Shown piece by piece: positions 2,955-57,112 of a DNA stretch of 64,000 bases. The stretch's first letter is position 1, and each line of letters opens with the position of its first letter. Made by a program: the position numbers and the translations under genes. The notes under the pieces are model-generated. The model ran no database searches. It was given only the letters and a program-made list of their open reading frames with translations, and was not told the origin of the DNA. The DNA is from Psammoneis japonica (taxonomy: Eukaryota), in the NCBI GenBank assembly GCA_008632985.1, contig QPGO01000012.1, positions 1 to 64,000 on the forward strand, in the 5' to 3' direction.

Positions 2955-3199
2955 TCGTGAGACCCCACAAATGCGGAGGGACCCTCCTGTAGAGCTCTGC
3001 GCGAATTTTTGTATGTGGCACTGAAACATGTAGCCTACATGCGCAAAACTGGCACAGTTTCTACGACAAAAATCCGAAAAAACGCCTGGCTCGCGAGACA
3101 GCTCTGGTGCAAAACCTGCGTGAGCAGCCCCCGTGCATTCACGCAGAACTCTGCACATTTCCGGGTTGCGGGTCCCTCCGTGTTTGTGGGGTCCCACGA
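2955..3199. mobile_element. MITE family B, probably Tc1/mariner-type with a mutated TA target-site duplication
   Basis: ~30-bp TIRs tcgtgagaccccacaaatgcggagggaccc / gggtccctccgtgtttgtggggtcccacga. Flanks are CA and TG at a site that is TA in the parent gene. Confidence 0.75.
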
Positions 3200-3480
3200 T
3201 GAAATGGAAGTGCAATGAAGCACGCAGGTTCCAACTCGGATTTGATCATCACCAAGGGCGTTGGAAAATCTTGTCCCTTTGCGATTGCCTGCCAAGACCG
3301 TGTCTGGAACGGAGCGTTGATGCACAACATGGACGATGGCACTGTTGCTTGGTGCAAATGCTGGAAACAAGGCACTTTTGTTTCATCCATTGCGTCGTCT
3401 TTCATTCCCAGTCTTGCTCGGCTCGACACCGTGTTGACATGAGAAAGCAGCAAAGCCTGAGTCAACTGCCGTTGACAACG

Positions 3481-3524
3481 CACACACACACACACACACA
3501 CACATGCACACACACACACACACA
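3481..3524. repeat. (CA)n microsatellite
   Basis: Direct reading; one TG interruption. Confidence 0.95.
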
Positions 3525-3899
3525 AGCTGCGATCCGATCAATCTTTTTTTTTTCTTCATGTGTCAACTCGAACGCTTGCACTCAGCATCGCTCTTGTGTG
3601 CCAACAGTCAAAAGTGTTGAGAGTGCATCTTGATCTGCAAATGGCTGCTGTGTGTTGAAGCACTGAAAAAATCAATCACGTCTTTTTTGCAGCATTGTGA
3701 GGTGAGCACTCGAGGTGAGCACTCGAGGGCAAGTTTCACAACATTTTCTTTTGTTGTGCTCACAAAATCAATTGTTTCCAACATCTTTGATGTTGGGGTG
3801 AAGTTTTCTCATCTGTTGTTTTGGAAAGAATGAGAATCAGAAGAGCAGCGAAGCTGTCACAAGTGCAGACGAAAATTTTTGTTGCGAAAATCAAATGTC

Positions 3900-6300
3900 T
3901 TGAGGAGCCGCCTGCGCTCCCCACCAGTGGCTGGCACCACTTTTCACACCAACTCAAGAACCCTGGATGACCAGTTCAGACAAGCACTGCATTGACAGCG
4001 GATCTCCAAGAGGCGCTGCATGCCTCAGAGACTTTGTTCTGCTGCTTTGGCCGGGCAAGCCCTGTCCGTCGTGACCTCCAGCCCAACAGCTTCTAGCATC
4101 TCAAGCACTTGTCACACTTTGCTTTCAGCTCCAATCACCCATGATCATTGCAATTTGGGACTCATGGCAAGACACAGTTGATTTGACCACAACATGTGAT
4201 GAATCTTCTTGCAGTCCAAGTCAATTTGGTTCTCAAGTTGAGCAGCTCGCAAGCCACTTCCAGGTGGATCTGTGCTTGTTTCTGTTCATGTGAAACCACC
4301 TCAAAAAGCCAGACACCTCAGCCTGTTGTCTTCTGTGAACATGTGAGTGAGCAGACGTGATTGCATCAAATGCACTCCGACTTGAACACTGGAAATGGCG
4401 TTGCTGGTCAATGCACCTGCAGCAGAAATTTTGATGGAGAGCAAAAAAACGTTGGCAAAAGTGTGACAAGAACTGACAGTTTGAGCGGCAATCGCCCAAC
4501 AATGTCCCTCCCACGGGATCAACTGAGACTTTCCATGTGTGCTCAATGCTCAAATTAAAACATTGACGAAGTTGCAACCGAACAATCAACATTGTCGGTG
4601 ACACATTCTTTCCACAGACAAGCATGATGCAAGGTGGTGCTTGACCAACCACCATGAACATCATCCGCAGGTGACTCCACTCACACCAAATCTTTTGTTG
4701 AGTTGTTCAATGAGTGCGCGAACCTTTCATGAACTTCGGTCACAGAGGCATTTGCAACCTTCAATTGGGTGGAGGCAACAACAGCAAAAACACATGAAAA
4801 GCAGTGATGTGAAAAAAAAACATCTAAAGGAAAAATTCGAGTGGCAATTGCTGCACCACATGCTTCCAACAGGGTTTGGAAAGACTCCGCAGATGCGATT
4901 GCCACTTGATTGTGAACATTGACGCCACCGCAAACAATTTGCTCACCATGGTTGAAATCTTTTTTTCTTGTGCAAAAAGCACAGGGGACGCGTTCCAGAC
5001 GTAGGTGGGAATCCGTGTGACATTGGGCCCGTAGACTTCTACGTGCGAGCTCCGTAGTAAAATTATACGGTAATTAAAATGTCAATGATCGCCAACAGAA
5101 AATGAGGCAATTTTGCGAACGCACAAACTCGCACATGATTGAAGTACATCATTTTTTACTTCGCCAGTTACATTCTTCAGACATTGAAGAATGTAACTGG
5201 CGCATTATTGTTTCTATAAATTTGTTATATAAAACGTCTGGGGCTTCGCAAAACAGCGAGTCTGGACAATTTTTTTTAAATATCACACGTAGAAATCTAC
5301 GTACGAAACATACGACGGATGATAAAAATTATTGTTGTCACACGTCAGTACTACGAGCTCCCACCTAGGGCTGGAACGCGTCAGGGATGTGGCAGATGAA
5401 CGTGAAAACAACATTTCAGTTGAGCTGTTCAACTGCAAGGTAAATCACATGGACTGGCTCATGCAGTGGTGCCATGCCACTGCAGTGGGCAAGTCTGGCC
5501 AGTTGATTCATTCGTTGGAAGCAGTTTTGTCCAATGCAAGTCTGTGTGGTTCTGCACAATTTTGGAAATTTCGCAACACAGTGGCATTGACTCTTGATGG
5601 CACACCATGGCTGTCGAAGCAACGGGCCTTCAGGTTTAGATCTCACTTCTGGAAAAGCAGCACCGATGTCACAAGCCTTTCTTTTGGTCTCACCCCCAGC
5701 ACATGCAACTGCAGGAAAATTTGTTCACTTTGTCAGAGCCATTGTCACATGTGATGACAGTGACAACAAGTGCCGCGCTTGCGGTGCACAGCAACGGTGA
5801 CGACCAAATGTTCTACACAAGTCATGGATGACAAGCAAACATCTGCGAATGCAAGAAGCATTTGTGCTTGACAAGTTTCATGCTCCCAGGATTCCAATGC
5901 TTGTTGACAACTGTGGTTTGTCTGCTCTGATGTGTTTCATGGCACATGCACACATGAACACAGAACACAAATTGATGGATCTGGGATGCCATTTCCATGC
6001 CAAAGTCATCTTGGAGGCAGATGCACAAGCCATTTGAAATCGCTGAGTGAGTCACATGCATGTCCATTGCAAATGTGTTGATGAAACACAGCCCATGTGT
6101 TGTGTTGTGCACTTGCCACAGGCCAAGCCAACTGTTTGGAACAATGGCGCACATCCGTGTGTGACCGCGCATGTTGGAAGCAGTTTTGCCAGAAAAATTG
6201 TGCAAAAATGTTGCACTTTTGACACGGGCACTGCTCAACAACAAAAGGTCACTCAAAGACAATCAAAGAGTAAAAATGTGCATTTTTGAGTGCAGAGATT
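3900..6300 (+). pseudogene. Degenerate coding remnant, possibly a MULE-like transposase, interrupted by MITE C
   Basis: Broken Tyr-poor frames with weak SWIM-like (WCHATAV) and zinc-knuckle-like (KICSLCQSHCH) traces. Confidence 0.2.
4987..5382. mobile_element. MITE family C, young insertion with a 4-bp TSD (AGGG)
   Basis: TIRs gacgcgttccagacgtaggtggga / tcccacctagggctggaacgcgtc; AGGG at 4983-4986 and 5383-5386. It retains normal TA and CG content. Confidence 0.85.
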
Positions 6301-7649
6301 TTGTTTGTGCAGTCATTTGGGGCTTGAACCTTGCTCAATCAGACACAAACACCAAATGAAAAATTGAAACACCAAATGAGGTGCCCAAATGTTTTGAAAC
6401 ACCATGTGTGGTGCTTGTCTCTGATTGGCATCACTTGCGGAAATTGTGGACATGCACAGTGGTTCAAAGCGGCACCAGCTTCGCAGAAATGAATTTTTTT
6501 GCACCAGCGTGGAAATGTGCGTGTGCATCTGGTGCACAAAAATCATGCTGACATCAACATTTTTCTCCGATCTTTCGGCAATGGTGGCAGTTGATGGTTC
6601 ACAGCTGTTGTGCCACTGACACCACTTCAATTGTCATCAAACCCATGGCATGTTGCTCATCACCCTCTTGTCAATTCACACATTTCTTTGAAATTGCGCA
6701 TTCTTCAGCCACAATCCTGACAATCAATGACATCAACACAAGGGAAAAACCAAATCAGGTGCAAGTTGTTTGCTGGCTTGCAACTGCATGTTTTTGTTTT
6801 GTGCACCCAACTGAGCGGCATTTTGCCTTCTCTTTCACTTGATCCCCTGGGGTGTCATTGTTCACAAATGCCGTGCTCCAGTCCTGACCCTCTCCCAAGC
6901 TCAGCTTGGTTTCACCCATTTGAGGATTCCCCAAAATGGCAAGGGCAAGGGGGATCACCTTGTTCTTTTGGGAAATTCCCCCGGGAAATGAGGGCAATTT
7001 AGTGGGAAGGGATGACTAAAGGGCCCGGGGAGGGGAACAAAAAACAAGTGCATTCTGGCAATTCCTGTTTGATTTGGGTTGGGCCGGTGCACCTTTTTCT
7101 CATCTTCATCCAGCCGGGCAATGACCATGATGGATGCATCAACAAATCAACACAAAGCACCCCCTTGTGGCAGAGTGAGGGAAGAACAAACTTTGCCATT
7201 AAATCACGCACATTGACATTGCTCACAAGGCGGCTCCATCATTTGTGCCCCAGCCTTTGCTCCAGAGCACTTGTTGTTTGCATTTGGAACCACACGACAC
7301 AAGAAGAAAAAGAAGATCTGCTGTGTTCTGCACATGAGACAGGTCAAAGGGAAGAACAAGCATTGTCAATCAATCCACCATGTTTTTGTCAGCAATGTGC
7401 AGTTCCACTTTTGCCTTGTCCTTCACACTGGGCACCTCATGGCTTGCCTTTCTGAGTGCACCACAAAAGAGTGATCTGGGTGACCCCCTTCATTCTGCAC
7501 ACAAGATGTGTCAATTGGAAGAATGAGAGAGACCATTCAATCTGACATGTTGTCATCATTGGCCATGCATGGTTCTGCTGCTTTTGCCTTGGCCTTTGCT
7601 GTGCGACTTGTGGCTTGCATTTTGGACTGCATGACAAAAGAACAACCAA

Positions 7650-9900
7650 TGCTCAGATGCTGACTTGCTGGCACTGAATGTGGTTGGCAGACAGAGAGAT
7701 CAGTTTGTGTGCATCAGAGTTGAAATGAGCAGTGATGGGCAGACGGCCATCACAGTGCCAGTGATGACCATGGTGGGTGCAGTCAGAATGGCAGGGAGCC
7801 TGGGCATGGGGGCAAGCAGGCCGCAAACCTTGGCATTGCACTGCGGTCGGCAAACTTTGGAGGTGGCAACAACACTTGGAGCTGGTGCAATGAGCCCAGC
7901 AAGGTGGAGACATGTTGGAAAGCTGGAGACATGCCAGGAGAACCACCAAGTGGCTGGCAGGGCCACCAACCACAATGCAGGAGCCATGTGGGTGGTCCAA
8001 ATGCATGCAGGTGGGAACCAAGAATGGTCAAGAGCCAGGGCACAGCAGAGCAGCCAAGAGAGCAGCCAAAGGAGGCACCAGCAGAACAGATGTCTCAGCA
8101 GCAGGTTGCCAGGTCCTGGAGCTTGAGTCTTTGAGAAGCCACCCTGACTCTGCTGGGGACACTGTCTCTTGTTGGCACCTTTGGGACAATTGTGGCACTG
8201 ACGGCTCCATTGCCATGGTGGCAACCACCATCCTGACCACCATTCCTGCCCATGTTCAGGCAATGACAAACCCAGTGGTCTGCAGCACCACAAACATGGC
8301 AGCCATCACCCAACTTGGACTTGCCAGCAGCTGCCTGAATGCCTTGAGTGTTCTGAATCATCAGCAGAACATTGACATCTCAGGGGTGAGCTGCAGGTTG
8401 GGCAAATTGGTGCCGGTGGTTTGGCAGAGAGCATGCCACTGAAGCTGGGTGGAGGAGCCTTGGAATCCTTGGCATTGTGACCAGGTGGCCACTTGCCATT
8501 GTTGCACTGTGTGTGACGTTCATTGATGACTGGTTCCAAGATGGAGGCTGAATCCAGTTCTTCAGCAAGCAGGAGCTTGTCCACATCATTGTGTGTCATG
8601 TTTTCAATCTTGAGCATGACCTTGGCCAGCTTTTTTAATGTGACACACAGGTTGAACTGAAAGTCCTTGTTCCCAGCTCTGCCAGCTGTGAGAAATGACT
8701 TCAGGAAGCCATGGGTGAGGGTGTTGTTGTGCGGACCCATGACAGCCAGCTGGTTGGTGCAGTCCTTGATGTGTGCAGCCATCACACCAGGTCCTTGCCA
8801 GGAAACTGAGAGGGCTGGACTGCTTGAATGTTGTCTTGCAGCTTTTTGAAAAGCTTGACAGACTGTGCACACAAGATCTTGAGGAGACAAAGCCATTGGA
8901 TGATGGGAAAGTGCTCATTGTCCTTGGCCATGCTGTGCAGCTCCTTGAGTGGGGTGGGTCAAGGCAGTCTCGAAGAGAGGCAACTCTGCATCAACATCAT
9001 TGGCCACATCACACTTTTCACAAGTGGAGGACCACTTTTTGATTCCACTTGGAACAGTGTCAATGGAGAGTTGAGCATGCTCCTTGATGGAGTCTGTCAT
9101 GTGGTCCAAGTCACATGGGTCAGGCATGTGGGTGACAGCATCCAAACCTTGGCACTTGAAATGATCCATTGGGAAGTCAGCAAAAGCAGTTGGATCACCA
9201 CATTTCTTGCATTTCTCCTTTGGGGCAGAAGCAGTGTGGCAGTGGGCACCCTTCTGGGAGGTTCCAACCAAAGCACTGCAAAACTGCATGGGATGGCAAG
9301 GCTCAGTCTTGGCAGCATCATTGAGGCCAGACCAGTCAGCCTTGGGCTTGCCACCACATCATGTCACTTCATTCTTGTCATGAAGAGCAGCAGCACTGCC
9401 CATGGTGGGACCAGTTGGCTTGAAAGATGCTGCTGGAGAAGCTGTTAGGATGACTTGCTTGAGTGCCTCAAATGGGACATCATTGGTGGTGCTCATGGTT
9501 GAACTGCCCTGCTGCTTGCAGTGTCGGTGGACTCATTGGCAGTCATGGTGGTGTTTTCTGACTCAATGTCATCAAAGGGGTGTGGGACCAACCATCTGGG
9601 ATGTCAGCACAATGAAGAAGCAGGAACTTGGAGACACATTCTTGGCATTGGGCAGAGACCATCTTGGAGGGGAGTTCCGTTGTGCATGCAATCTTGCAAC
9701 AGAAGACTCAAGGCACCACAGTGTGGGCCAGAAAGAAGACTGTGCACTCTTGAGTGCAAAAAGCTTGAGCGTTCTCTGTTGCAAGGCATTCCTCAGAAAG
9801 TGCAGGCCTTGTCAAACCCTGATTGGGCACAAATGGCAACCACTCGGGGTCAACAACTCTGATGGCTCTCTGTGAAACATGACTGCAGTCAGTGGGGGGC
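7650..9900 (-). mobile_element. Degenerate LTR-retrotransposon gag remnant (Copia/CoDi-like)
   Basis: CCHC knuckle CHVCGAADHWVCHC at ~8260-8301; gag-like segment HFKCQGLDAVTHMPDP...NDVDAEL; many frameshifts. Confidence 0.65.
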
Positions 9901-10316
9901 ACTGCTGCACTTGTGCAATGGAGCCTGTAGAGCAAGCCAGTTGCAGCACAGAATGAGCTTTTAAAAAGACTGATTCTACAAATTATGAGCCACTTTGAGG
10001 AGATCTGAACATGCTGAGTCTTGTGGGAAAGTTTGCTTCAGCCAATTTTTCAGCCTCAGACTCAAAATTTTCAATGCCACAGTGATCGCCAACAGCAATT
10101 TCCAACAGATCAATGCATGGCCAATGACATGCTTGCTGATGACAGCACTCTCAATGGAAGGTGCAGCAAGAACAGACACTCAAACACCTGTTCACTTGTG
10201 GGAGCCACAAGCAAGCACATTTAAATTTTAAATGTGTCGTTGACTCGTGATTGAAGTGTGTGACTCACGAAGAGAAGGACAGACAACCTGGACTTCCAGC
10301 ATGCCATGCTGGGTGC

Positions 10317-10548
10317 TGGGGGGGGCGTCTTCAGAAGTGAGATTGTCAAAGAAAGTCACACACAATTTTTGCTAAAACAGTCTGTCAATCAGGGCAATTG
10401 GGGCATTTGGGAATGCTGGACAGATCCCCTGTGTTTTTTCTTGTGTGCACAAATTGCACCAGAACCCCCCAAACAACGCACTGGCAATCAGACTGCCTTC
10501 GACAATCTCACTCACTCAGACCAATTAACTTCCAAAGACATCCTCCAG
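10317..10548. mobile_element. MITE family A, TA/CG-converted copy
   Basis: Colinear with 2724-2928 (e.g. gcgtacaaattgtact -> gtgcacaaattgcacc). Confidence 0.8.
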
Positions 10549-10649
10549 CCAGAGTGACTTCCTTTTTTCAAGCATGACAAAACCCAAAACAAAACGGCCA
10601 CCATTGCCATCATTGCTGTCGTTTCCACTTTTGAAATTGCTTTCTCACA

Positions 10650-11880
10650 ATGGCGCCAAAAAAGACAACAGTGGCAGAGGCCAGTGGAAAAGAGCACACA
10701 ATGATGCTGGGCAGCCAAGATGGGTGCAGGGACACACCATCTGAGTTCAGTGTTGCCTTTCTGCAAGATGTGATGGTGTTGAGACAAGAAACTTTGAGTC
10801 CCTTGCCAATGGATCACAGATCTTCTGGAAAAAGCCAAGGGTGGGACACTCACCAATTCAGAAATTGAGCATGCCTTGGTGAGTCACTCCAGGTTCATCG
10901 ATGAGATCCCAAGCAAAACAGATCAACGAGAAGATCACAATTGGCAGGTCATTTGTGGACTCACCTCAGTGTGTGCATCAGACACAGACAAGGTTGGTGA
11001 TCAGGGGACAGCATCTGTTTAACAGCCCGGTTCCTGAAGCATTTGGAAATGTTGGAACTGCAGTTTGCTGCAAGAGGCTCACCCCTGTTCAGTGCTGCTA
11101 AAACCATGCAAGAAACTTGGTGATCTGCAGCGGGAGCACAACGTTGCAACTCAAATCCATGGCACTCAAACTTGTCCAATGGCAATGCCTGTTCTAGACC
11201 TGATTAATTTACCTGGGGCAAACTGCAACGTGTTGCAATGGTCACACCACACTGCCCAATTCCTTTGTCTTTTCTTGCACACGGGAATTTGCACGAAGAA
11301 GGGTGTGTCAACGTGTGGCTTTGTGTGGGCTTACGACAATCAAGGCCTTCCACAGAGAAGGTGTCTGCCATGGCAACACAAAAAACTGGGGAACATGATG
11401 CTTGCAGCCAGGAGTGACAACACAGTCATTGCAATTGACTTCGGATTGGCGGTCGAACATGGAGAGAGTCTGGCGTCATTGACGCCCGGATTTGGTCTGG
11501 AGTGTCCACCAGGAAGGATGTCTCAAATGTGACTTGACATGTTTGGCATCTTCACTGCATGTGTTCCGCACAGGAGAGATGCTGCTGGCAACCTCAAAGC
11601 AACTGCTTGAGACTTTGGAAGGTGGGAATCAATTGCTGCCACCCTCTCTTTGGATTGCCATGAGCTGTCCGCAGTTGACTGGCATTGATTTCATTTGGGA
11701 ATTTGCGAAGGGCTGTGCAGAGACTGCCAATGGGACAGATTGTTCTCTCATTGTGTTGTGTGATGCTGTTTGGCCAAAAGTGAGATTAGAGGATGAAACG
11801 AATTGTGCTCAGACAATCTTCAAGGAAGGAGCATCGAGGTCACTGTTGTCATTGTTGTTGTCAGCAAATCCTCCTTGACT
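10650..11880 (+). pseudogene. Degenerate protein kinase gene
   Basis: KLGNMML...VIAIDFGLAVE (catalytic-loop tail and DFG) at ~11380-11460; frameshifts and stops. Confidence 0.65.
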
Positions 11881-12350
11881 GCAATCAAAAGCATGTGGAA
11901 GACATTGGACAAATAAGTTTCATCCCTTCATGGACGATGCCGTAGATAATAGATTTAAACTAAGTACAGAGTTAAAGAGCCTACGGCATGTAGAGCGGAA
12001 GGGAACAGCAGAAGGAGGCACGGAAGTAGCTGTAGCACGGCAGAATAGAACGGGCGCTTCGTCACGCTTGTTTCGGAGTACAGGCGCCTGGAGACGATGG
12101 GGGTGCCCAAATTCCAGCGAATCATCAACATTGAACATATCATAGACCATCGCTTTACTACAGTAAACATAGAAGTACTAGTAGAAAGCAAACAAAGCCA
12201 AACTAGCTACTAGAGAGAAGTATGCTGCATGATCATGTCATACGATATCTAAAGTCAGTCTAAAGTCACCTTATGGAATGCTACTCTTGGAAAATACCGT
12301 GTCGCCAACTGGCACGCGCTCCTCGATGTTGCGCCTCTCATTGCGCAAAT

Positions 12351-37500: not shown

Positions 37501-37600
37501 GCTCCAGTGGGTGTGTGCTCCTTGTTGCACTGCATGAACTTTCCCTTGCCCAACTCCACCACTGGGTGCTTGTCACAAAACATCTGGGCTCCACTTTGGC
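28600..37600. other. Converted domain with several unidentified coding remnants (e.g. 29050-29946 +, 33134-35700 +)
   Basis: Long Tyr-poor, Cys/His-rich frames with protein-like stretches; no family recognised. Confidence 0.4.
32714..32860 (+). repeat. GAC/GAT-rich low-complexity repeat (Asp/Ser/Asn-coding)
   Basis: gacagtgac/gacagcgac/gatgac units next to the N-gap. Confidence 0.8.
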
Positions 37601-38214
37601 ATGTGCTCTTCCAGTGCCCATGCAGCTGATCCACTTGGCTGCAACAAGCGGTCGATGCGCCGATGAAATCGATCATCGTCGGAACGGCACGTTTTCTGGC
37701 ATGTCTTGTGTAGAAAGCTCTGTAGAGCGTTTCGCCAAATCCAGGGTGGCATGGTAACAATTTTTGAGCCACCGTCCGTCTTCCTTCCGCGATAGTCTAT
37801 GCACCGGTAATATGAGGAGACCTTCGGGTGCATGCGAGCGCGCGCGAAGAACGGTCGACGCATAGACTCACGTTGGAGAGTGCACGCACGCGCGCCAACG
37901 CTCTCTCAACGCAACGCTCTCTCAACGCAACGCTCGTCACTGTCGCAATCAGCCATCAGCCCTCGATGCGTTCGCATCATTGTTCATTGTTGTTGTTGTT
38001 GTTGTTGCACCAACAATAGCCTAGTCGTACACCGTAACAGAAAACAGTCCGCGATCGAGACGTACGACATCCACAACCACACTGTGTGTAGCAGCAGCTA
38101 TAGTATCTCTCCAACAGAAGAGCAACATCGATCGCATCTGTGATCGATTTCTTCCACGATCAATTCTTCACCTCGAACGAATTAACAATTAACCTTTGTC
38201 TCACCATTTTCGCA

Positions 38215-39400: not shown

Positions 39401-39584
39401 TACGGGAGCCTCTAGGGCTACAGTATTGTCAGTTGACCATGTCATCTGCATTGGGCTGCCGCAGGGCTTCCTGCAAAATAGCATGTAGAGAGGCTCTGAA
39501 ATGATTTAGTGCTGTTATTGTTTTTCAATTGTTGTGCACACATTCTATATGTTGTTTTGTTTATGCCGGTTGGAATGAAACGAC

Positions 39585-39880
39585 AGGCCTGGTTGGGTTG
39601 GTAGAAATCGGCCGTCTTCAAGCTGTTGGATCTTGACGCCCAGAAAGGTGCCCACTTCACCATCACATGGGTCAAAGACACGGTGTTGCTCATCATTGGA
39701 GACACCCAATTTGGCAATCTCTGCTTCCAGTTCTTGAGAAGATTGACCAGCAAAAACAGCATCATCAACACCACTGCGAGCCACGTGCCCTTGGTGAAAT
39801 GAAGACAAGGGTCTACATCCGACCATGCTTGAGCAGTCCATTGTGCAGATTTTCACAGAAGCACTTTTGAGACCATCAGA
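39585..39880 (-). mobile_element. Copia reverse-transcriptase fragment
   Basis: VDDAVFAG...GEVGTFLGVKIQQLEDGRFLPTQPGL. Confidence 0.75.
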
Positions 39881-42465: not shown

Positions 42466-42657
42466 TGTGACAAAAGGAATGAACAGTGATGTGGCACACG
42501 GTTCATGCTGCAATGCCCTTGCTTCATCTTAGAACAGTGCATCAACCACACGCGCTTGTTTGCGCAACCATTGCCAAAGACCACAGCCCAATCAGGCCTG
42601 TGGACCTGTCACCGGCAATGCCAGCAATGGCCCTGCCACCGTTGCGCTGCCAAGACA
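42466..42657 (-). repeat. 3' LTR (fully converted)
   Basis: Aligns to 49092-49284; both end ...gcgctgccaagaca. The left boundary is approximate. Confidence 0.8.
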
Positions 42658-45600
42658 GACCTCTACACCAGGGGTTGCTTGGTCCCCGTGAATCAACACA
42701 CCTGTTTTGATTTGTCCTCTTGAAACATCCTCTCACAGAGAGGTGAAACACAAACCCAATTTGCCACCAGCCAGTCTGGCTCATGGGAGGTTGCAGAGCG
42801 TGAACGCAAGTCACAGGCCCAAACCTTGGTGAGTGAGACTCACCATCACCAAAACAAAAATGAGCACAACTGCCAGCACTTTGCACCTGTCACAAGCTTT
42901 GTCAATGGATCCACCAGATTTGTCTCTGCACATCTTCCTTTCCTGCTCTCATGATTCCAGCTGCAGCTGCTTCCCTTGCCACATGACAGTCAATCACATT
43001 GTGCTTCTTGGTGCAGTGTAGATTCTGGGATGCTGACATTCTTCACCATCCCGCAATTGTCACAAAACACATTGGCTGGTCCATCAATCAGCACTCCAAA
43101 CATTTGCAACTTGCAACGCAAAGCAACAATCATGTCCCCACAGATCCGCGTGGCAACCAACTCACTGCCAAACATGGAAAATTCAACCACATTTTGCCAC
43201 TTGCCAAACCACACAACGAGGAATTATTCACAAAGAGAATGACACCTGAATGCAACCTGCAGGGAACAACATTCCCAGCATGATTCACATCAACAAAAGC
43301 ACGCACAGTTGCCGGGTTTCCACGTGGCTTGAGCATCCTTGGTGGCAACTCTCCTTGACATCTCCACAGAATTTGGTCCAGTCTGCCACAGTGTTGAACG
43401 CTGTGAATCATCAATCTCAGGATTCTTGGGGTCAAAGCCAATCCTCCCCATGCTCAGATGCTTCTTCACATGTGCAAACACATGACACAAGGCTTCCGAA
43501 TGACCCTTCCTTGGATTGCCTGATGTTGAGAAAGAAAAGACACTTCAAACAATGCATCAATGCAACCCAACTCTGTCGCCCACCTTGCAATGCTGTGAGC
43601 TGCAAATGCTGAGACATCAACTCGGGACCCAACTCATCAGTCACGTCCAGCTTGGGCTTGCAGTTCAATGGAAATGGATCTTTTACATTGTTCTTCAGGA
43701 CTGCACCATCCCATCCTCACTCAGCAAGTCTTCAATGGTCTTAATTGCATTCTTGACACAGTCTCTTGGTGAGCTGCCTCAGATCATCTGGCCATTTGCA
43801 TCTGGATCTTCTCTGTCATTGCTCCCAGGCAAGTCTTTGGCTCACCTTTGCTTCCAGATTTAACTTGCAGCATTCAGCAACAGATTCAACAACTGACTTG
43901 CCTTGGTGTGACATCATCAATGCATCGTCAACACAGACCAGTGACATCTTGCAGCACTCAAATCCATCCTCACGACTGCTGCTCTCAAGCACACATCAGG
44001 GTCTGCTCGCTTGGTTCAAAACATCTTGCAAAGCAGAAGAAAATGTCAATCACCATGAAAACCCTGCACTCTTCAATCCACAAGTGCTCATGCAACAATC
44101 AATGTGCACCCTTTGAACTTGCCACACTCGGCTCCACCTTCAAACCAAATCTTCTCAGCACACGGTGCATTCAAGCAAGCATTTTCCAAGTGATCACAGC
44201 AATGTCCACACCATTCAAGGCTGCCAACATAAAAGCAATTCACACACTGTCCCTTGAAACAACACTTGAGTGCGCAATCAATTCCAGTGTTTTGTGGCAT
44301 GACCTCCGACTGCAAACCTTGCTTTGCACGCAAATTCATCTTGACGTCAAATGTCATGTGGCGCTGCATCTCCTGGTGTCCACGCAGCTTCTGATTCTTT
44401 CCTTCTCAAACTTGTTGCGGAGTCTCTCCTTCATGCTTTTCCCAAGCCACTTTGATCTCAGTCATTTCCTTGTTGATTGCTCTGGCCCAATGATCAGTCC
44501 CTGCTTCATGGTCAATCTGCAGCACCTCATCCACATTCTTTGGCAACTTTGCACCAAACTCATGTGCAGTCCTCCAACACTTCAACTTGGCCTTGGACAC
44601 AATCCTGTTCGTTTCCATGACACATGAGGTGCCCACCAGGCAAATGCCAGCTCATCAGCAATTCAATGAGCCACTGCGCACTCAGCCACTTCTGTTGGGT
44701 TAGAGTCTTTGATGTCCTTCAACTTGACCCAGTCAGAACTGCCATCCTTCCATGCTGTCAGCAATTCCCAACCTTCTGTCATGACTTTCTTCTTGTTCTG
44801 ACCTCCTGCGGTTGCAACTGTGCCATCTTCCCATGAAATTGCATCCTGATTCCTCCTGTGATCCTGAATCTCATGTGAGATGGAGAGCTGATGACCCTCG
44901 TTGTCAACCTGAGCAAATGTGTTTTTAGCTGTGACATTTGCAGTGTGCTTGTCTGTTGTTCCATCAGTGCATTCAATTTCATGCTCCCGCATGTCAAACA
45001 ATGGGTCCTGGTGTTGGCTGCCAATCGGCTTGCCGCCATGGCCTCTTGCTTGTTTCACAACTGCACCATGCCTTTCACCTTTTGTGCCAACATCCAAAAT
45101 CAATTCCATGCCAAGACATTGGTCTGTCACTTCCTCATCATTGTCGTCAGGTTGTTTGCCATCGAGCAGCATGTTGCCACATTCCTCATTGTCTGGGGTC
45201 ATGCCTCCTTGACATTGCACTGCATTGTCCCCTTCAATTGCATGGTCACATAAAAACAAAATGCTGGCACTACCTTGTCACCTTCAAGCACAAAGTTTGC
45301 ATCATCAAGATGCCTCGTCAAAGCTTCATCAAACCTGTCAATTTGTGCCTCTTCTCCAATTTGACACAATCGGCCTGCACAACATGCTCCACTGAGGTCT
45401 TGGGTGCCAATTTGCTGGTCTCAGCTGTTGTCCAATGGCACACATCTGATCCAACCTTGTGGGATGTTCCAAGCCACCTGCTGAGTTGTCTTGGATCTTT
45501 GGTCATTGGTCACACTTGGCTTTGAATCCGGTTGATCCCACCACCAGACCAAATCATAAAATCCAAAGTCAAGACACTCTCGATTTCTGGCATTTGTCCT

Positions 45601-48600
45601 GTTGCCTCTTCACTCCCAGTTCGTTGGTCCCAACCTTGCGCCATCCTTGATGACAGTTCAGCCTCATATGCAAGACCAAAATCCCATGCCACTTCAGAGC
45701 ATTCTTCTTGGCATTGCAATCTCCAATGCTTGGCCAAGAAACCCATCTCCCTCTCTGCTGCTTGGTTTTGGTTCTTCCACCTTGCTTTGAGTTTCTGAGT
45801 TGCACACGCACGCGCCTTGCATGTTTCACAAAATCCACATTCTTGCCAGTGAATTCTCCTGCGCCGTCCATCAACAAGATCTCTGGTGCTCCAATGTCAT
45901 CTGCAAACTCAACCAATGATTGTCCAGCCTCAGACCTGGCCGTCATTGGGTTGCCTTCATGAACTTTCCCTGAGTGTGAACATTTTCACAAGTGTCACCC
46001 AGTGTTGATTTAACCTTTGAAATGAGGGTGTCTGCAAACCATGTTCCTTTCAGTCTCTTTTGATGTGAGTCCAAGTGGTCCACCCGAACATGCCTCGACA
46101 GTGGTTGCATTGCCGTTCTGACACCTTGCTGGGTTGCAACATTGAGAGCATCCTTTGCCGCATCTGGACCAACACTCCACTTCCTTGCCAGTTCTTCTGC
46201 CGTTATCTTGGAGCGCCTGTCCTCAGTGCAAAGTTCCACCACCTTCTGCTCCAGCTTGTCAACATCCTCTCTGTGGGTGCATGCAATTTTTGCAGATGCA
46301 ATCACACGATCACAAAAGGTTTGGAGGTGATGAATTGGGGATGTGCTTGCCACAGTCTGTTCAACCTCTCCCCATTGGACCACCACAGACTTTGCTTGTT
46401 CGGCCTTCAACTCAGACACTTCAGACTTTTGCATGTGTGATGTCAGTGACCTGACGGTGTGCATCTCTTGTTGTTCACGAGTCTCATTTGGAAATCCCAC
46501 ATCAAACCTCTGATGGATTCCAAGTGTCTCCCATGAGCTCAATCACTGGCAGATTCTCTTGCTCCCATCTGCAGGTGCACAAGACTCAAAAGATGCAACT
46601 CTCCCCATGCATGAAAAGGGATGAAAGATTCTTCTGTTGAAATGCCAAAATTGTCTTGAGGATTGTGGGTCATCATTGACCGAGACGTTGCAGGCTTGCA
46701 ACTGATTCTGATTGATCAGGGAATGTTCCATTGTTTCACCAAACCATGAAATTTGATCGCCAACAAGGAGGCATTCATTTGTTGTTGGGATCTGTCCAAA
46801 CAGCAGAACAGCATGCAACTGGAACTTGTTTGACCAGATCATGCAATTTTGAGAAATGGCTTGCTTCACATGCTTCATTGGTCAATTCCATTGGTCTCCA
46901 ATTTGCTCCTGCACAACAAGTGTCTGCATGGGGTGTCGCATTCGTTTTGGGACATGTGACCAGGAACCACATCATTTGCAATGGGCACAGCATTGACGGA
47001 CTGCACTGACCTGGTGGAGGTCACCAAAATCCTGCAGGAACTCTTCGATGCATTGTTTGGATGGGGTGCAGATGGCACAAGTGGCAAGAGCAAAGACAAA
47101 GCAATCACATTTGCACAACATGCGGACATTGCCAACAATGCTGTCACCCCAAACCATCAAGTGCGTGTGTGAGCACCATGACCAAATCCTGCCCCATGCT
47201 TGCCACCTTTCTCATTCTTGCAACCATGTCCACATCCCCCACCTGAGGGCTGAGTCTGCTGTTGTTGTGACGATTCTTCCAAACCTTGACTTACGGCTGA
47301 TGCTTGCCTTCCTGCAGGGCCACCACGCCCTTGTTGACCATGACCTCCATGTCCAGCCATGCACTCACGAGCTTGCAAGACACATGCATGTCCACCACCA
47401 AACTCATGAGGGGGATCTGACACATCCACGCTGTTGATCATGTTGCCGCATCCACCAAAGCATCCCCTGCCTTAGCCTCTTTCATTCCTGCCTTGACCGC
47501 CATGCAGCCCTTGGCCAAAACCTCTGGCAAAGCCCCTTCCAGGATTGCCATCATGAGACATCTCTGAGATCTTATGCTTCGAACAACACTGGGCCTCCAA
47601 CTGTGCTGCGCCATGCAAATGAGAAACTTCTGCAGAAAAGAATGCACAAGCACCAGTGAAGTCACGGGGAAACTGCTGGCTGGTCACAGGGGTGCAAGCT
47701 TGTGGCCTGACATCATTGGTCTTAATTCCATACAAGAGAATGTCAACTTTCTGCCTGTTGGTCTTCCGTTTGTCCTCGTCTTTGTCCAGGGTTGCAAACG
47801 CACTGGTGAGTTTTGCCGTGCAATGCTCAAAGGGCAAGCACCACTCATTTCTTGTGGTGCAACATCCGGTGTTTGCTGATGCTAACTGCGTGCACTTGCT
47901 GAGCTCTCCTTGTCCATTGCAATGGTTTGCCCATGCCCAGAATGCATCCCTTCCGTTTTCTGTGTTGTTGCATTGTTCAATCCAGGTCCATCCTTCTGCA
48001 CTCACAAGATGTCCCTTCAACAGATGACAAACAGTTTGATTGTCTGAGTTAAAAGCTGGTCTGTTGAAACTCAATTGGTGCACGCACTCTTCCACATTGT
48101 CAAAAGCTCAGCTGGGACTGCCACTGGCCTCACTGCATGCTGCAACGGTTCTTTCAGCACACCAATCTTCTGTGACAACAGATTCAAGAACGCATCTTCC
48201 ATGTGTTCCGACTTGAACGCCGGCAAGGAACTGACCGTCACATCTGATTTGACAACATCCTTTTCAGCGCGCTTCCTTTGGCAAGCTTCATTCAATGCTG
48301 CCCAACCAACTGTGTGACATCAAGCAACAGATTGTGCTTCTGATGATCATGAAGCCACCAAACCAAAGCTTGCAAGTTCTTAATCTGAGTGCCACCAAGC
48401 ACTGCCCTGCCATCATTGATGCTGCATCGACTGGCTCTGTTTGCCATTTCTTCCACATCCGAGTTGCTTTCCACAACTGCAACATGTTCCAGAGTCATGA
48501 ACCCATCATGGAAGACCAAACGAGCTCACACATTGGCATCAGCAATGCACATGTCTCCATTGCATTGTCCACATCTGCCGCCAGTGCCAGGGCTGCCAAA

Positions 48601-49091
48601 GCTTGAGCTGGCGCTGCTGCCATGCTTTCCTGCAACATGAAGACAACAGAACAATGTCCATGATGGATGCAGGAGGTGACTGTGAGACTCACACAATGGG
48701 TGTGGATGGGAGACTGAATGCCAGCAAGTGCTGTGGCAACAGGTCCACGCAGTCAACTGGCAATGAGAGGTCACCCCACGCCGTTTTGTCTGAATGAGCA
48801 CATGCTCTGGGCTTGCTGCCCCACACTGCTGTGTTCAACACCTGTTGCACATGTTGAAAACTGACACATTTGCAAGTGTGATGCTGTTTCAACTGCAGCA
48901 ATTCTCATGGTTCGCACTCGCATCATGTTTGTGTTGTTGCGCGACGTGCACATGCAGAACCCAGCACTCTTTCTGTGGCTGACACCGATGTGGTTCTGCA
49001 CAGTAACGAATGGCTGCGCATGTCATTTCGATTCACATCCATGTGATGATGGCAACGTTTTGCTCCAATGCTCAGTCGTGTGACATGGCTC

Positions 49092-49284
49092 TGGCAAAGC
49101 GAACAAATGGTGATGTGGTGCCACGGCTCATGCCGCAACACCCTCACACCTCATCTTAGATTAGCGCATCGACCACACGCACTTGTTCATACAACCATTA
49201 CTAAAGATTATAGCCCAATCAGGCCTGTGGACCTATTGCCGGTAACACCAGTGACAGCCCCACCACCGTTGCGCTGCCAAGACA
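49092..49284 (-). repeat. 5' LTR (partly unconverted)
   Basis: Aligns to 42466-42657; retains TA in its gene-proximal part. Confidence 0.8.
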
Positions 49285-49391
49285 GAAGGATTTAGGGCCC
49301 TGCTCGAAAAGAGAAGCATGTTCGTTTGCGGAAATTGATCACAAATAGGTTCCTATACTTTACGGCAAAAAAGAAGCCGCCGCAATCCGCA

Positions 49392-52012: not shown

Positions 52013-52362
52013 TGGCTTGTGTCGTTTTATAGGAATGAAAGCACTGGCTTTCTCGGACAGAGGCGCCGCAAGTGCAATTTACAAACTCCTATCTTTGTTG
52101 CAACAGTGGACAAAAGGTTGTCAAGGCAGGTGAGATCGAAAAAGCCCGCGAATTCAAACTCAACGGCAGGGCGGTTATTTGGTATCGCTGTAAAACAATA
52201 ATGATTTATAAGATCGTAATTAATCATTGAATTTCCAAAAAGCGCGGGAAATGTGGGAAACTGCACCGGGCCCCTACTTCACCGCGGTGCCCACCCGAGA
52301 AAGTCGAAAAGATCGGGACCACTCAGTAAGCACACCGGTGTTAGCTCCTGGAGCATCTGACC

Positions 52363-53547
52363 ATGTCTGGAACGACGGATAGGAGTAATGATGGTCGACT
52401 AGATGACGTTTTTGCTCAAGTGTTGGCTTCGATTGACTTTAGCGAAGAAAGCGTAGCGCAGAAGACGCAGGAAACAAACAACTGTCATGGCGATGCGGCA
52501 GGATGCACTGTGGGATGCAAGCTTGAAAAGGCACCTACCGATCCTGACATTCCTCCCTGCGATGATTGCGGTAAGGAATTCTCTGGCAAACTAACCTGTG
52601 GTAGCTGTCACTTAGCTTTCTATTGCTCCAAGGCGTGTCAGCGGCGTGATTGGAAAAATGGAGGCCACAAAAAGGCGTGCAAGACGATGAAGGAAGAGTG
52701 TGAACGAGTCGCGCGGCGCCTCGTGGACCTTATGCAAGACCCATCGCTCAGTCCTTTTGAACGACTCGGTCAGGAGGGCGAACTGAGCAAACTCGACCGC
52801 ACCGCTGCGTATCGGGAAGCTCAGAAGTATGGACTCGATGAGGCCATGCGCCAGCTATTCTTGGACGACCGAGATCAAGTGATGAACCGGTTCCGCAGTG
52901 GCAGTGTTGCTTTTTCGTACACGAATTGGATCATGTGCACTCTTTGGCGTGGTCAGCGGCGTGATGGGAACGGCGCCAAGAGTCCCGTTTTTAACTGCAT
53001 TGATGCACAGCGCATCAAACAATATGTGCTGAGTCACCCCGACGCGCTGGACAACTGGTTCGATGCGAGTTTGGCCTTGTTCCTCGTGCCCTACAATACG
53101 ACCGTGTACCGCTCTGGAATTCATCCGGAAGCGCATGGTACAGCTCGTGATGTCATGGCTGCCTGGATCTTTGTGTGCACCAAGAAGACGTCCATGGAGG
53201 CAATCCTGCTCGGTTCCACCAAGACGGCTGATGATCAAGCCATTGTTCGAGCTAAATCGCTCGCCAAGCGAATTCAAGTGGTTCTCAAGGCCGTCACGAA
53301 ACTTGGTCAACGTGACAGGGGCGGGAAATTGGAAGGCATCCTCAATCAAGTTGCGGCAATGCTTGCTTATTGGACAAAAGAGTTCAAGATCGAGGTGGAC
53401 TTTGACGAGGAACTTGGCTTTCGGGATATCCAAAAGCTCATGTACATGAAGGTTGCGTGGCCACTTGCGATTGGGACCATTGAAAAGCAGCGCACCTTGA
53501 CCATGCCGGAATCACAAGAATACATGCAGCGGTACCAAAACCGTTAG
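52363..53547 (+). CDS. MYND zinc-finger protein (intact copy)
   Basis: CDDCG...CGSCHLAFYCSKACQRRDWKNGGHKKAC; 394-aa ORF. Confidence 0.88.
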   Translation: MSGTTDRSNDGRLDDVFAQVLASIDFSEESVAQKTQETNNCHGDAAGCTVGCKLEKAPTDPDIPPCDDCGKEFSGKLTCGSCHLAFYCSKACQRRDWKNGGHKKACKTMKEECERVARRLVDLMQDPSLSPFERLGQEGELSKLDRTAAYREAQKYGLDEAMRQLFLDDRDQVMNRFRSGSVAFSYTNWIMCTLWRGQRRDGNGAKSPVFNCIDAQRIKQYVLSHPDALDNWFDASLALFLVPYNTTVYRSGIHPEAHGTARDVMAAWIFVCTKKTSMEAILLGSTKTADDQAIVRAKSLAKRIQVVLKAVTKLGQRDRGGKLEGILNQVAAMLAYWTKEFKIEVDFDEELGFRDIQKLMYMKVAWPLAIGTIEKQRTLTMPESQEYMQRYQNR

Positions 53548-53914
53548 AGTAGTACGGTACAAGAACTATTATGGGTACGGGAAAAGGTTGCCGACACTGG
53601 GGGATCGGGGAACTAAACGATCATCATTTGGTATGGTGAGGGGAAAGGGGAATTTATGTTTGTAATGTAGGGCCTAGTATAGCCGTTGTATAGCTCTAGC
53701 TAGCTACCGGTAGAGTAGAGTTTGCGTTGAACAAGATAGCTCACGTCAAATGCAAATCCCGATGTGAGATTTGTCCCGGTTGCTTGTGATTCACGGACGC
53801 GGTATCCCAACAACCAATCACCCAACGCACCAGGTGCAGGGCGCAGAAAATCTGCGATCACATTCAAACTGTCAGCAGGTATTTTCTTGCACATCACATC
53901 GAGAAACACGAACA

Positions 53915-54095
53915 ATGGCCGTAAGACTGAGTTTAAGAGTGGGAGCAGCCTGCGTGCTTTTTTGGGTGCAAGTTGCATCTCTGGAAGCAGTGGCACAGCC
54001 GGCATTTCTGACAGCAGAGCGGTCAACACAACAAAAAGGATCCTTTTGGGTGACAGCTGTGACCCATCAACCATCTCTCCCACTGATCTGCTTTC
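53915..54095 (+). pseudogene. Truncated, converted copy of the JmjC gene 5' end
   Basis: Aligns to 58877-59058, then is replaced by unrelated converted sequence. Confidence 0.85.
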
Positions 54096-56666
54096 TGCTG
54101 TGTCAGAAGATTGCTCCAACCAGTGCCAAGTTTGTGCAAATGCAAGCTGTGGCTTGCAGCAGGAGTCAATGCTTGAGAAATGTCTTGACCTGGTGCTTGG
54201 CTCTGTGTGGCGCAACTCAAGTTGTGTTGCAAACAAGAGTGCCATGCCAGCAGCCACTCCAAACAATGAGTTGCTCTGTGGCAGCAGCAGCTTGACATCT
54301 TGCTGCAAACAAGTGCAGCATGGGCAGATTTTCAAAACAATGAGGAGCTGCATTGCAGCAGTTTTGTCCAAACAAGTGCTGCACAAGTGCTGTGGTCGTC
54401 CAAGTGGTGGTTGTGGTGGCAGCAGCAGCAGCAGCAGCAGTTTTTGTGTCTTGTTGCAAGCAAGTGCCACACAAGCAGTTGTTTCAAATGGCAAGCAGCA
54501 GTGGCAGCCACAGCAACTTTGGAGTCTTGTTGCAAGTGCGAGCTGCACAAGCAGTTGTTCCAAACAATGAGTGGCAGTCAGCAGCAGCAGTGTCTTCCAC
54601 ATCTTCTGAAGTCTTGGAAAATTGAAGCTGCTCTTGGCACTGTCTTGCACAGTGCAGCAGCATGCAAGAATCTGTTGGGGCTGATGCCAACAGCTGGGTG
54701 ACAAAGTTGCACTCTCATCCTGCACAACTGCAGTGTGCCAACTTTGCAAATGTCGCCAGCACTCTCTCAAGATGGCAGCTGGTCTTTGAACCATGTGGGT
54801 GCAAAGCTCTTCAGCTTTGCAGTTGGTTGGCCACCAGTCAGCTGCATCTTCACCTTGCACAGCAACTTGCTCCCTGGCACACCAAAACAAATCTTTGATG
54901 AGCCATCCCACAAATTCAATGCTTGATGAGAGCATCCTTGCAACAAGCTCCAAATGGTTGGCAGCAAATGAGCAGCACTGATGTCTTCTTCTGGAACATC
55001 ATTGCCCCACCACAACTCTGTTTTGAGCCTCTTTGTCTTGCACCTTGAGGCTTTGGTGGAATGTCTTTGCCCTGCCTGAGTGTGCTCCTCAAGAGAAAAC
55101 AAAAGGCAACAGAGCTTGAGCACAGAGCATGGACTTGTGGATGAGCCACCCAAGGTTGGCAACAAGCCAACAGCACTGGTGTCTTCTTCTCAAACATTCT
55201 TGCCCTGTCACAGCTGTGTTGAGCCTCTTTGTCTTGTGTCTTGAGGTTTTCGTGGTGCCCCTTGGTGTCCTTGCCTGCAAAACAAAAAATTGGCCAAGCA
55301 TTAGGCACAACAAAATGGATGCAACATTGTGGCGCAACTTTTCATGCACTGTTTGTTCTCCAAAATGCAGAGTGGCATCTACAAACATTTGATGCACATC
55401 ATGACTTTTACACATGATGAGGAACACAGCAAAATGTGTGAGAGTTGGCAGACAGACTGCCTCCATCAAACTCACTTGGATCATCCAAAGGTGCCGCTGT
55501 TGCTGTGTTGCAAGTGCAGAAAATTTTTTCAGCAGAAATTCAAAAGCTGTGCTGGCCAAATTTGAGCAAAAAAGGCAGCGACTGGTCACCCTCAATCCTC
55601 TGTTTTCCTGGCTGTTTTCCATGCTTTTGTTGTGATGGGCATGTTTGTGTTCTCAACAAATCTCTGTCCATGCACCAACATGCAGAATTTAATTGCAAGC
55701 ACAAACATGCATTGAAGTGGAGTCACTCTTGGCCACAAGCAATTGGTGTCTCACTGCAATGTCACATTTGCAGCTGATTTTCTGTTCAAATGTTCAAAAA
55801 TCAAAGAAAGTCTCTTGATCTTGTCCTTGTCACTTTTGGCCAGCTTGGGTCCAACAAAGGTAAATTTGATCAGATGTTTGGAAGAAAACAAGTGTCTGAG
55901 GTCTTGCTTTGTTGGAGATGTTGGAAACCTTTCTTTCACTGATCAAAGCACACAGCATTTCACTTGCAAAACAAAAAAAGTCAATGTCTGGCTCATCTTG
56001 CAGCATGAAAAATGGCAAAAAAGTTTAGTTTGAGCTCTGAAGTCATTGAGAACTTTGGAAAATTTTTCTTCCACTGGCTGCCAGTGTGTGAAAAGTGGTG
56101 AATGGCCAAGAAACTNNNNNNNNNNNNNNNNNNNNNNNNNNNNNNNNNNNNNNNNNNNNNNNNNNNNNNNNNNNNNNNNNNNNNNNNNNNNNNNNNNNNN
56201 NNNNNNNNNNNNNNNNNNNNNNNNNNNNNNNNNNNNNNNNNNNNNNNNNNNNNNNNNNNNNNNNNNNNNNNNNNNNNNNNNNNNNNNNNNNNNNNNNNNN
56301 NGGGGGGGGGGGGGTGAGCAAAAACACGCAGCAGAAACATCATGGTCTTGGACCTCCTTTGCAGCATCACAATGAATGGCAGTCAGCGCAGATGCAGTTG
56401 ATGGCACAGCAGCATGAGCTCCATTCATTGCAGCATGCAAGGCAGGAGAAGAAACTCATCTGATTAGAAAGAAAGGAAAAGTGAGAAGAGCAGAGTGAGA
56501 GGATCTGTGAGAAACAAGCAGAGCATGTGGCCAAAAATGTGCTGGCTCCACAAACAGAGCCGCATCTCAGCAGATCGTTGCCAGTCCAATGTCTGAAGAC
56601 ATGGATTGAAATCCAAGTCAATCTCATGTCAAAGTTGCATTTGTGCCACAACTTGCTGTTTCACAC

Positions 56667-56830
56667 TGGGAAGACTTGTTCGCATGGAGCAGTGAGAAAC
56701 ATGGGGGGCAGTTTGGCTGGGGCGCATTCTCCAAAGGTGCAGAGATGCTGGGAAGACTTGTTCACATGGAGCAGTGAGAAACATGGGGGGCAATTTGGCT
56801 GGGGAACATTCTCCAAAGGTGCAGAGATGC
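56667..56830. repeat. Two-copy ~82-bp tandem repeat
   Basis: tgggaagacttgttc(g/a)catggagcagtgagaaacatggggggca...ccaaaggtgcagagatgc occurs twice. Confidence 0.9.
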
Positions 56831-57112
56831 TTGTTGGAGCACGTGTCATGGCAATGGAAGAAATGTTTCAAATGTGGTCACAGAGAAATGCCAGCCATTC
56901 CAGGCTGGATGTCACATCATGGGTGGTGGGGAAAAAGTTGGTCAAGCTGATGGGGCAGAAATGAATGATGGCCACGGGCCTCTGGACTGAAGGAAAATGG
57001 GGCATCCGACAAGAGGGGCAGAAGCAGGCATGGATGGACTGCAAATTAGATCTCCAATGTCACCGCACCTGGAGAGGTGGGGTGGTGAAGCAGCATGAGG
57101 ATGCACTCGACA

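Follow-up and report, generated by a model that had tools for sequence, protein, structure and literature searches.

What could remove one dinucleotide, TpA, almost completely from half of a stretch of diatom DNA and spare the genes beside it? The question is raised by positions 1 to 64,000 of contig QPGO01000012.1 of Psammoneis japonica (assembly GCA_008632985.1). This whole stretch of 64,000 nucleotides is referred to here as the window. An earlier sequence-only reading had proposed that an undescribed mutagenesis converts TpA to TpG or CpA in repeat domains, and had named it "reverse-RIP" after fungal repeat-induced point mutation (RIP). The observation is real and strongly supported. The best explanation overall, to which a probability of roughly 0.6 is assigned, is a position-targeted hypermutation of TpA combined with CpG decay, a DNA adenine deaminase being the leading guess for the enzyme.

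The composition of the window was scanned in 1-kb bins using observed/expected (o/e) dinucleotide ratios. Large tracts have a TA o/e of only 0.00-0.16 and a CG o/e of 0.06-0.5, and TG+CA reaches 1.6-2.5 there. A two-state Viterbi segmentation on TA positions yielded five TA-poor domains. Domain 1 (3063..5001) keeps 3 TA in 1,939 bp, and its CG depletion is mild (35 CG/kb). The other four were delimited by both TA and CG segmentation: domain 2 (5367..11913; 24 TA and 82 CG in 6,547 bp), domain 3 (26534..37710; 40 TA and 188 CG in 11,177 bp), which is the largest, domain 4 (39603..49156; 39 TA and 145 CG in 9,554 bp), and domain 5 (53935..57149; 8 TA and 26 CG in 3,215 bp). The five segments sum to 32,432 bp and thus make up 50.7% of the window, less than the 60% or so first suggested. 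The early count of about 11 TA in 5400-9960, where a few hundred were expected, was nearly exact: the recount gave 10, against 290 predicted by base composition. The longest TA-free run measures 1,436 bp, compared to a maximum of 197 bp in 200 mononucleotide shuffles.

Pooled TA-poor DNA (31,401 nt) contains 117 TA (o/e 0.06), 490 CG (0.27), and 7,079 TG+CA (1.8), whereas pooled TA-normal DNA (30,771 nt) contains 1,147 TA (o/e 0.56), 1,795 CG (1.0), and 4,529 TG+CA. The TG+CA gain of about 2,550 nearly matches the TA+CG loss of about 2,335. The genes thus keep a normal TA content, as first claimed, and scans based on GC are indeed blind to the tracts, as GC is 48.3% in TA-poor and TA-normal DNA alike. 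The transitions at the domain borders take up no more than about 100 bp, and the Viterbi borders lie 77-440 bp from the nearest end of an open reading frame (ORF) in the ORF list. In the TA-normal parts, genes with long ORFs lie in compact clusters.

The direction of change was polarised with four copy pairs joining TA-normal and TA-poor DNA, found by self-BLAST. Since each TA is hit at most once, A>G per A saturates at 0.5. In these pairs, A>G affected 45 of 98 adenines at TpA (0.459), compared to 13/159 at ApA (0.082), 20/184 at CpA (0.109), and 10/168 at GpA (0.060). C>T was found at 39 of 136 CpG, versus 0.03-0.09 in other contexts, CpA (0.081) being at background. The polarised spectrum, which the sequence-only reading had put forward as a check, therefore holds a TpA-specific excess of A>G (0.459 vs 0.06-0.11). 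One pair involves the 3' end of a host ACSF4-like gene (source 22750-23480), a hypermutated copy of which lies inside domain 3 (27023..27768, plus strand). Its 29 source TA became 19 TG and 6 CA, with 1 retained; its 39 source CG became 14 CA and 13 TG, with 8 retained.

A second line of evidence comes from the retroelement in domain 4. A full HMMER protein search with frame 47475-48107(-) as query found 372 relatives (best E 3e-55). Unmutated environmental copies at 29 loci consist of a gag-like ORF followed by a pol ORF with RVT_2, the latter found in the pol of one relative (L017). Their proteins are colinear with 42849-48564(-) of the window. The hypermutated pol was mapped to 42849..46930 on the minus strand by tblastn with these copies (E down to 1e-165), and the hypermutated gag-like gene to 47169..48564 on the same strand. 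Direct repeats of 195 bp flank the gag-pol unit at the positions expected of long terminal repeats (LTRs). The 3' LTR (42468..42659, minus strand) has 1 TA left, and is 78% identical to its twin in nucleotides and 97% in purine/pyrimidine. The 5' LTR (49092..49286, minus strand) abuts a gene and has 9 TA, all at or beyond 49157, so that the domain border falls inside it. On its gag-pol organisation, the Copia-type reverse transcriptase of a relative, and its direct LTRs, the element at 42468-49286 is classed as a Ty1/Copia-type LTR retrotransposon. Pfam detects no domain in the mutated copy.

In an outgroup test, the Copia-type element was compared at positions for which at least four unmutated relatives were available and at least 75% of them agreed. 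Conserved tyrosine (codon TAY) was retained at 2 of 56 positions, and had changed to cysteine at 20 and to histidine at 13. Conserved arginine was retained at 54 of 130 (glutamine 17, cysteine 11, histidine 9, stop 7). Retention of other conserved residues was 38/50 for tryptophan, 98/130 for glycine, and 48/73 for phenylalanine. All 29 environmental loci of the Copia family have a TA o/e of 0.53-0.79 and a CG o/e of 0.77-1.30. Paralogues and outgroup relatives together thus establish the TA state as ancestral. The direction is TA to TG or CA, i.e., A:T>G:C at TpA on either strand, as had been read from copy pairs before, and the earlier proposal of a second, targeted mutator besides CpG decay is borne out.

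Both strands are mutated. The TG/CA balance in 500-bp bins has a variance of z of 1.34, compared to 1.54 in normal DNA, and runs tests on the order of outcomes gave no significant sign of strand-coherent bursts (P 0.46 and 0.37). The flanking bases do matter. Relative to TA-normal DNA, TA survival is 0.70 for TTAA, 0.32 for CTAA/TTAG, 0.025 for GTAC, 0.013 for ATAT, and 0.005 for ATAC/GTAT. Among residual TAs, RTAY (R, purine; Y, pyrimidine) accounts for 4.3% and YTAR for 53%, compared to baselines of 34.4% and 16.6%, respectively, in the 29 Copia loci. By the base 3' of the A, polarised events amount to 19/35 at TAC, 13/31 at TAT, 5/16 at TAG, and 4/16 at TAA. The half-site preference is thus for T-A-Y, with hardly any RTAY left, whereas YTAR, and TTAA in particular, is spared. 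The native context of TadA is UAC, which the T-A-C/T preference resembles, and adenosine-to-inosine (A-to-I) editing by ADAR and ADAT enzymes likewise appears as A>G at (U/T)pA. The substrate of those enzymes is RNA, whereas the changes described here are post-insertional, heritable, on both DNA strands, and domain-bounded.

The same hypermutation has been described in Bigelowiella natans, and the word "undescribed" has to be given up. Mettrop et al. followed mutation-accumulation lines and report hypermutation of TpA to TpG/CpA in integrated viral DNA (bioRxiv 10.64898/2026.01.13.699255). According to the text of this preprint, 231 of 302 new mutations fell in two integrated viral regions; these were nearly all A>G/T>C, all on TpA, and about 1000-fold above background. 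It also describes 124 TpA-poor clusters and proposes an ADAT2-like deaminase. As presented there, the likeness to the window is close: TpA alone changes, to TpG or CpA depending on the strand, in discrete foreign or silent regions, and the lasting footprint is a clustered depletion of TpA with a gain of CpA+TpG. Reverse transcriptase and DDE domains are over-represented in the TpA-poor coding sequences of B. natans, which recalls the retroelement-bearing domains of P. japonica. By analogy, the enzyme acting in P. japonica is inferred to be a DNA adenine deaminase, the leading guess.

Several differences are to be noted. B. natans is a chlorarachniophyte (Rhizaria), whereas P. japonica is a diatom (Stramenopila). 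The targets reported in the preprint are inserts of nucleocytoplasmic large DNA viruses (NCLDV) and virophages, but those identified in the window are LTR retrotransposons and embedded host DNA. The preprint gives a Rho of 0.45 in the NCLDV region, whereas depletion in the window is near saturation (o/e 0.06 over half of its length). CpG decay coincides with TpA loss in the diatom; the text on B. natans mentions neither CpG nor diatoms. The RTAY > YTAR rule was found here, whereas TTAA, "flanking", and "trinucleotide" are absent from the main text of the preprint. Conversely, a de novo rate was measured in B. natans, and the present data consist of a footprint and a comparison of variants. A literature search found no report of TpA-specific loss in a diatom.

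The rival explanation that survives best, although unlikely, places the lesion on thymine instead of adenine. A TET/JBP-type dioxygenase would make 5-hydroxymethyluracil (5hmU), or a base-J-like derivative, preferentially at TpA in silent DNA, and mispairing or faulty repair would then lead to T>C, to be read as TA to CA on one strand and as TG on the other. The sequence reads the same whether the A of T-A-Y is altered or the T of R-T-A on the other strand. Moreover, dinoflagellates, which also belong to the Stramenopila-Alveolata-Rhizaria (SAR) group, carry 5hmU made by a TET/JBP homologue; it is enriched in repeats and silences transposable elements (TEs) (PMC11572971). Older work cited in that article found T to be preferentially replaced in the dinucleotides TA and TC. 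As described there, a base-level mark on silent repeats, a SAR protist, and a preference for TA (and TC) are all reminiscent of the window. However, what is reported for dinoflagellates is a modification and not a mutational footprint, and the same article calls high 5hmU peculiar to them. A TpC signature was not seen in the window, where it was not specifically looked for, and the T>C outcome of 5hmU is itself a deduction.

Position-targeted TpA hypermutation has next to be set apart from ordinary CpG decay. CpG turns into TpG through deamination of 5-methylcytosine. The CG segmentation called CG-poor segments at 5402-11934, 26405-37648, 39189-48912, and 53921-57107. Their borders agree with the TA-poor borders within 14-414 bp in four of the five domains, domain 1 being TA-poor without being called CG-poor. 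Deamination in methylated TEs can account for that part of the signature in which CG turns into TG/CA and for these common borders, but it cannot remove TA, and TA is lost also where CG is largely kept. This is the case in domain 1 and in a member of the Copia gag family, P0138, which is free of tyrosine and has normal arginine. The family was surveyed for composition on 150 listed members. Among these 150, eight are nearly free of tyrosine (median 3.3%), i.e., P0138, P0140, P0144, P0145, P0146, P0158, P0166, and P0197, with cysteine or histidine at conserved tyrosine columns. They come from public assemblies in ENA, JGI/IMG, Logan, and NCBI, and further TpA-hypermutated copies or organisms are therefore present in public data. 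Others (P0125, P0128, P0130, P0136, P0170, and more) are arginine-poor, rich in cysteine and histidine, and normal in tyrosine, as in CpG decay without TpA loss; their hosts or loci presumably lack the TpA process. Domain 1, P0138, and these arginine-poor members show that TA loss is separable from CpG loss.

The separation bears on error-prone repair, a candidate of the sequence-only reading. A Pol eta-like polymerase would be drawn to methylated DNA by the processing of T:G mismatches and change WA to WG (W, A or T) during repair synthesis. The co-occurrence with CpG decay in four of five domains is in its favour. Nevertheless, A>G at ApA (0.082) does not exceed that at CpA (0.109) or GpA (0.060), in contrast to TpA (0.459), and domain 1 loses TA but keeps most of its CG. 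The explanation is disfavoured and must be regarded as very improbable.

The process is targeted by position, not by homology or element boundaries. Of the Copia LTR twins, the internal copy has 1 TA and the gene-abutting copy 9, and the two differ by 38 transitions and 4 transversions. LTR twins are identical at insertion and these have diverged since, so the mutations are post-insertional. A segmental duplication of 1.7 kb offers a second case. Its copy B (52356..54096, plus strand) is 91% identical to its twin at 57334-59059 and runs into domain 5. Up to about 53756 it is untouched, with 3 of 45 TA changed to TG/CA, and from there on it is saturated, with 10 of 14 changed. The host ACSF4-like gene fragment inside domain 3 is mutated as well. 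As twin LTRs have opposite fates and a duplicate is spared outside the domain, homology neither triggers nor delimits the process.

These results remove the homology trigger implied by "reverse-RIP". Fungal RIP is set off by duplication, turns CpA into TpA, and mutates both copies. It shares with the present case a transition hypermutation in a dinucleotide context, the inactivation of TEs, and compositionally odd tracts beside normal genes. However, the chemistry is opposite, since TpA is removed and C>T at CpA stays at background, and neither the spared 91%-identical duplicate (3/45) nor the unequal LTR twins fit a mutagenesis of both copies. The term "repeat domains" does not hold in the sense of copy number either: ordinary and purine/pyrimidine-recoded self-comparisons found almost no repeats within the window. 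The recoded self-BLAST, aimed at repeats masked by transitions, returned only pairs already known, its shuffled control scoring up to 36. Confinement to silent, TE-bearing DNA does hold, with five sharp domains, spared genes, and retroelement relics in two domains. As to foreign origin, the picture is mixed: it is traced for two of the five domains, and one host gene fragment is mutated.

The positional data also speak against editing at the RNA level. Double-stranded RNA of a retrotransposon would be A-to-I edited at UpA by an ADAR- or ADAT-like enzyme, reverse-transcribed, and inserted already mutated. RNA adenosine deaminases do prefer UpA, as noted in the Discussion of the B. natans preprint (10.64898/2026.01.13.699255), and retroelements occur in two domains. 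However, both strands are changed, TG being about as frequent as CA and tyrosine going to cysteine 20 times and to histidine 13 times. Mutations have also struck a fragment of a host gene and one part of a duplicated host segment, and a border crosses an LTR. The divergence of LTR twins after insertion already contradicts this explanation, which is still less credible than error-prone repair.

The window was also compared with contigs built from the reads of three public runs (X1, X2, and X3). Contigs from X1 cover 20001-40000, those from X2 matched TA-normal parts only, and those from X3 covered nothing; lack of coverage says nothing about expression or absence. The independently built X1 contigs reproduce the TA-poor sequence, and the tracts are therefore not an artefact of assembly; raw reads retaining TA had been named earlier as a refutation. 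The depth of X1 contigs, which is a hint and not a copy number, is 58.6-61.2 over genes and 57-91 over most of the TA-poor domain; exceptions are one bin of 16.2 over an N gap and values of 107-1081 at 35.3-38.0 kb. Least probable of all is the absence of any mutator, with foreign or selected DNA born TA-low through UpA avoidance, or an assembly or sequencing artefact: beyond the odd composition nothing speaks for it, and it is already contradicted by the ancestral TA of paralogues and outgroups, the affected non-coding LTRs and host fragments, the same sequence at like depth in X1, and the consistent reading of each site as TG or CA.

The read contigs further carry signs of recent change. Counted per contig, window and X1 differ at 1 position in about 5.96 kb of TA-normal genes and at 44 in about 9.2 kb of TA-poor DNA, a difference of about 28-fold. 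Variants were typed for 40 listed of the 92 differences. Among these 40, 39 lie inside the TA-poor domain, 16 are of the CpG type, and 5 of the TpA type, although the covered part holds only 27 TA sites. Recent variants are thus enriched for the TA signature.

A number of points weigh against position-targeted TpA hypermutation as set out above. The polarised sample is small, the 98 TpA adenines corresponding to 49 dinucleotides, and one copy, the ACSF4-like one, has a nominal strand bias (19 TG vs 6 CA, P 0.015). The flank data fit "A followed by Y" and "T preceded by R" equally. None of the 138 ORFs of at least 90 aa in the TA-poor domains has a significant Pfam match. TE origin is demonstrated, by homology, for two of the five domains only, and one domain also contains a host gene fragment. 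A miniature inverted-repeat transposable element (MITE)-like insertion embedded in TA-poor DNA keeps 29 intact TAs, which is easier to reconcile with an episodic or past process than with a constant one. The comparison of variants rests on 40 of 92 differences, and window and X1 may represent two haplotypes or two strains from a single sample.

With these points in mind, the preferred explanation may be put as follows. Long intergenic tracts of the diatom nuclear genome would hold dead LTR retrotransposons and embedded host DNA. They would undergo a position-targeted hypermutation at the DNA level, by which A:T of TpA becomes G:C on either strand and which would have run to about 90-99% completion, with ordinary 5-methylcytosine decay of CG to TG/CA superimposed. 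Targeting would follow a chromatin-like domain that ends 77-440 bp from the neighbouring ORFs. Adenine in DNA may be converted to inosine by a polynucleotide deaminase of the ADAT2/TadA type that is brought to silent chromatin. The sequence data show the signature, its direction and TpA specificity, its presence on both strands, its positional targeting, its separability from CpG loss, and its excess among recent variants; the enzyme is a guess. A bolder extension is held tentatively and at short of even odds: a methylation-independent, chromatin-targeted TpA-editing defence might be common to SAR lineages as distant as the diatoms and the chlorarachniophytes. Its enzyme, a nuclear adenine deaminase of DNA or a thymine dioxygenase with a preference for RTAY, would read the silent domain instead of sequence homology, and would still be at work in P. 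japonica. In combination with CpG decay, it would erase both self-complementary pyrimidine-purine (YpR) steps and rewrite about half of the region at unchanged GC.

The other contents of the domains were identified to different degrees. Domain 2 contains a gag-like relic of a second retroelement (8191..9466, minus strand), mapped by tblastn, whose relatives carry a zf-CCHC knuckle. Frame 7556-9532(-), with X at TGA, matches P0275-P0277 (E 7.5e-27, 1.4e-24, and 2.4e-14), and PF00098 is precomputed for these matches. The relic is located between two candidate LTRs on the plus strand, a TA-normal copy at 2725..2912 with 7 TA and a TA-poor copy at 10320..10513 with 1 TA, which are 84% identical in nucleotides and 92% in purine/pyrimidine. 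A local alignment of the flanks of these repeats in purine/pyrimidine code was over-extended and discarded. The MITE-like insertion (4987..5382) measures 396 bp and has 24-nt terminal inverted repeats that are 92% complementary. Its TA and CG are normal, the 29 TA lying in 5002-5366, yet TA-poor DNA surrounds it on both sides; either it arrived after the mutagenesis, as a young insertion, or it was protected from it.

In domain 3 (26534-37710), Pfam and protein searches gave no match besides the ACSF4-like gene-fragment copy, and frame 28453-30087(+) had zero matches in the protein search. The look-up of frame 53703-54998(-) in domain 5 gave no usable match. As for the Copia family, seven environmental contigs (L009, L012, L015, L017, L018, L021, and L023) all measure 6.7-6.9 kb, which suggests that they are full-length elements assembled as units. 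At the edge of domain 3, the summed X1 depth at 35342-38009 is 107-1081, compared to about 60 elsewhere; loose contig ends (35862-37811) and short joints (35515-36942) crowd into the same zone. This suggests a high-copy sequence at the domain edge. A 16-bp tandem repeat occupies 37896-37935. One X1 joint, from 24859 to 33923, has a shorter side of only 21 letters.

The gene clusters include a biopterin-dependent hydroxylase, a pseudouridine synthase, the ACSF4-like enzyme, a JmjC protein, and an asparaginase. The best named relatives of the hydroxylase are from the pennate diatoms Synedra, Nitzschia, and Seminavis, at an identity of at most 85%, which identifies the window as diatom nuclear DNA. 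The 1.7-kb duplication carries paralogous MYND-finger genes (52345-53547 and 57227-58507), the latter broken into the adjacent frames 57227-57979 and 57980-58507. In the TA-poor domains, TAA and TAG are gone, and all six frames contain long spurious ORFs of up to 432 aa, e.g., 53703-54998(-). Gene finders would therefore over-call in these domains, and a scan for stop-poor frames does not discriminate, since TGA is the sole remaining stop.

The signature in P. japonica is the same as in B. natans, now in a diatom and at near-saturation. The only other account of A:T to G:C hypermutation at one dinucleotide is a 2026 preprint, which concerns one alga. That a diatom has it too suggests that an editing system for genome defence, or one linked to heterochromatin, is widespread among eukaryotes, and the diatom data add three constraints, namely positional targeting, the RTAY > YTAR rule, and independence from CpG decay. 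As GC is normal and protein homology is lost (tyrosine to cysteine or histidine; arginine to cysteine, histidine, glutamine, or stop), such tracts will be overlooked or wrongly called when repeats and genes are annotated by standard means. If the bolder extension to distant SAR lineages is true, tracts invisible to GC- and homology-based repeat annotation could make up a large hidden share of the "dark" intergenic DNA of protists.

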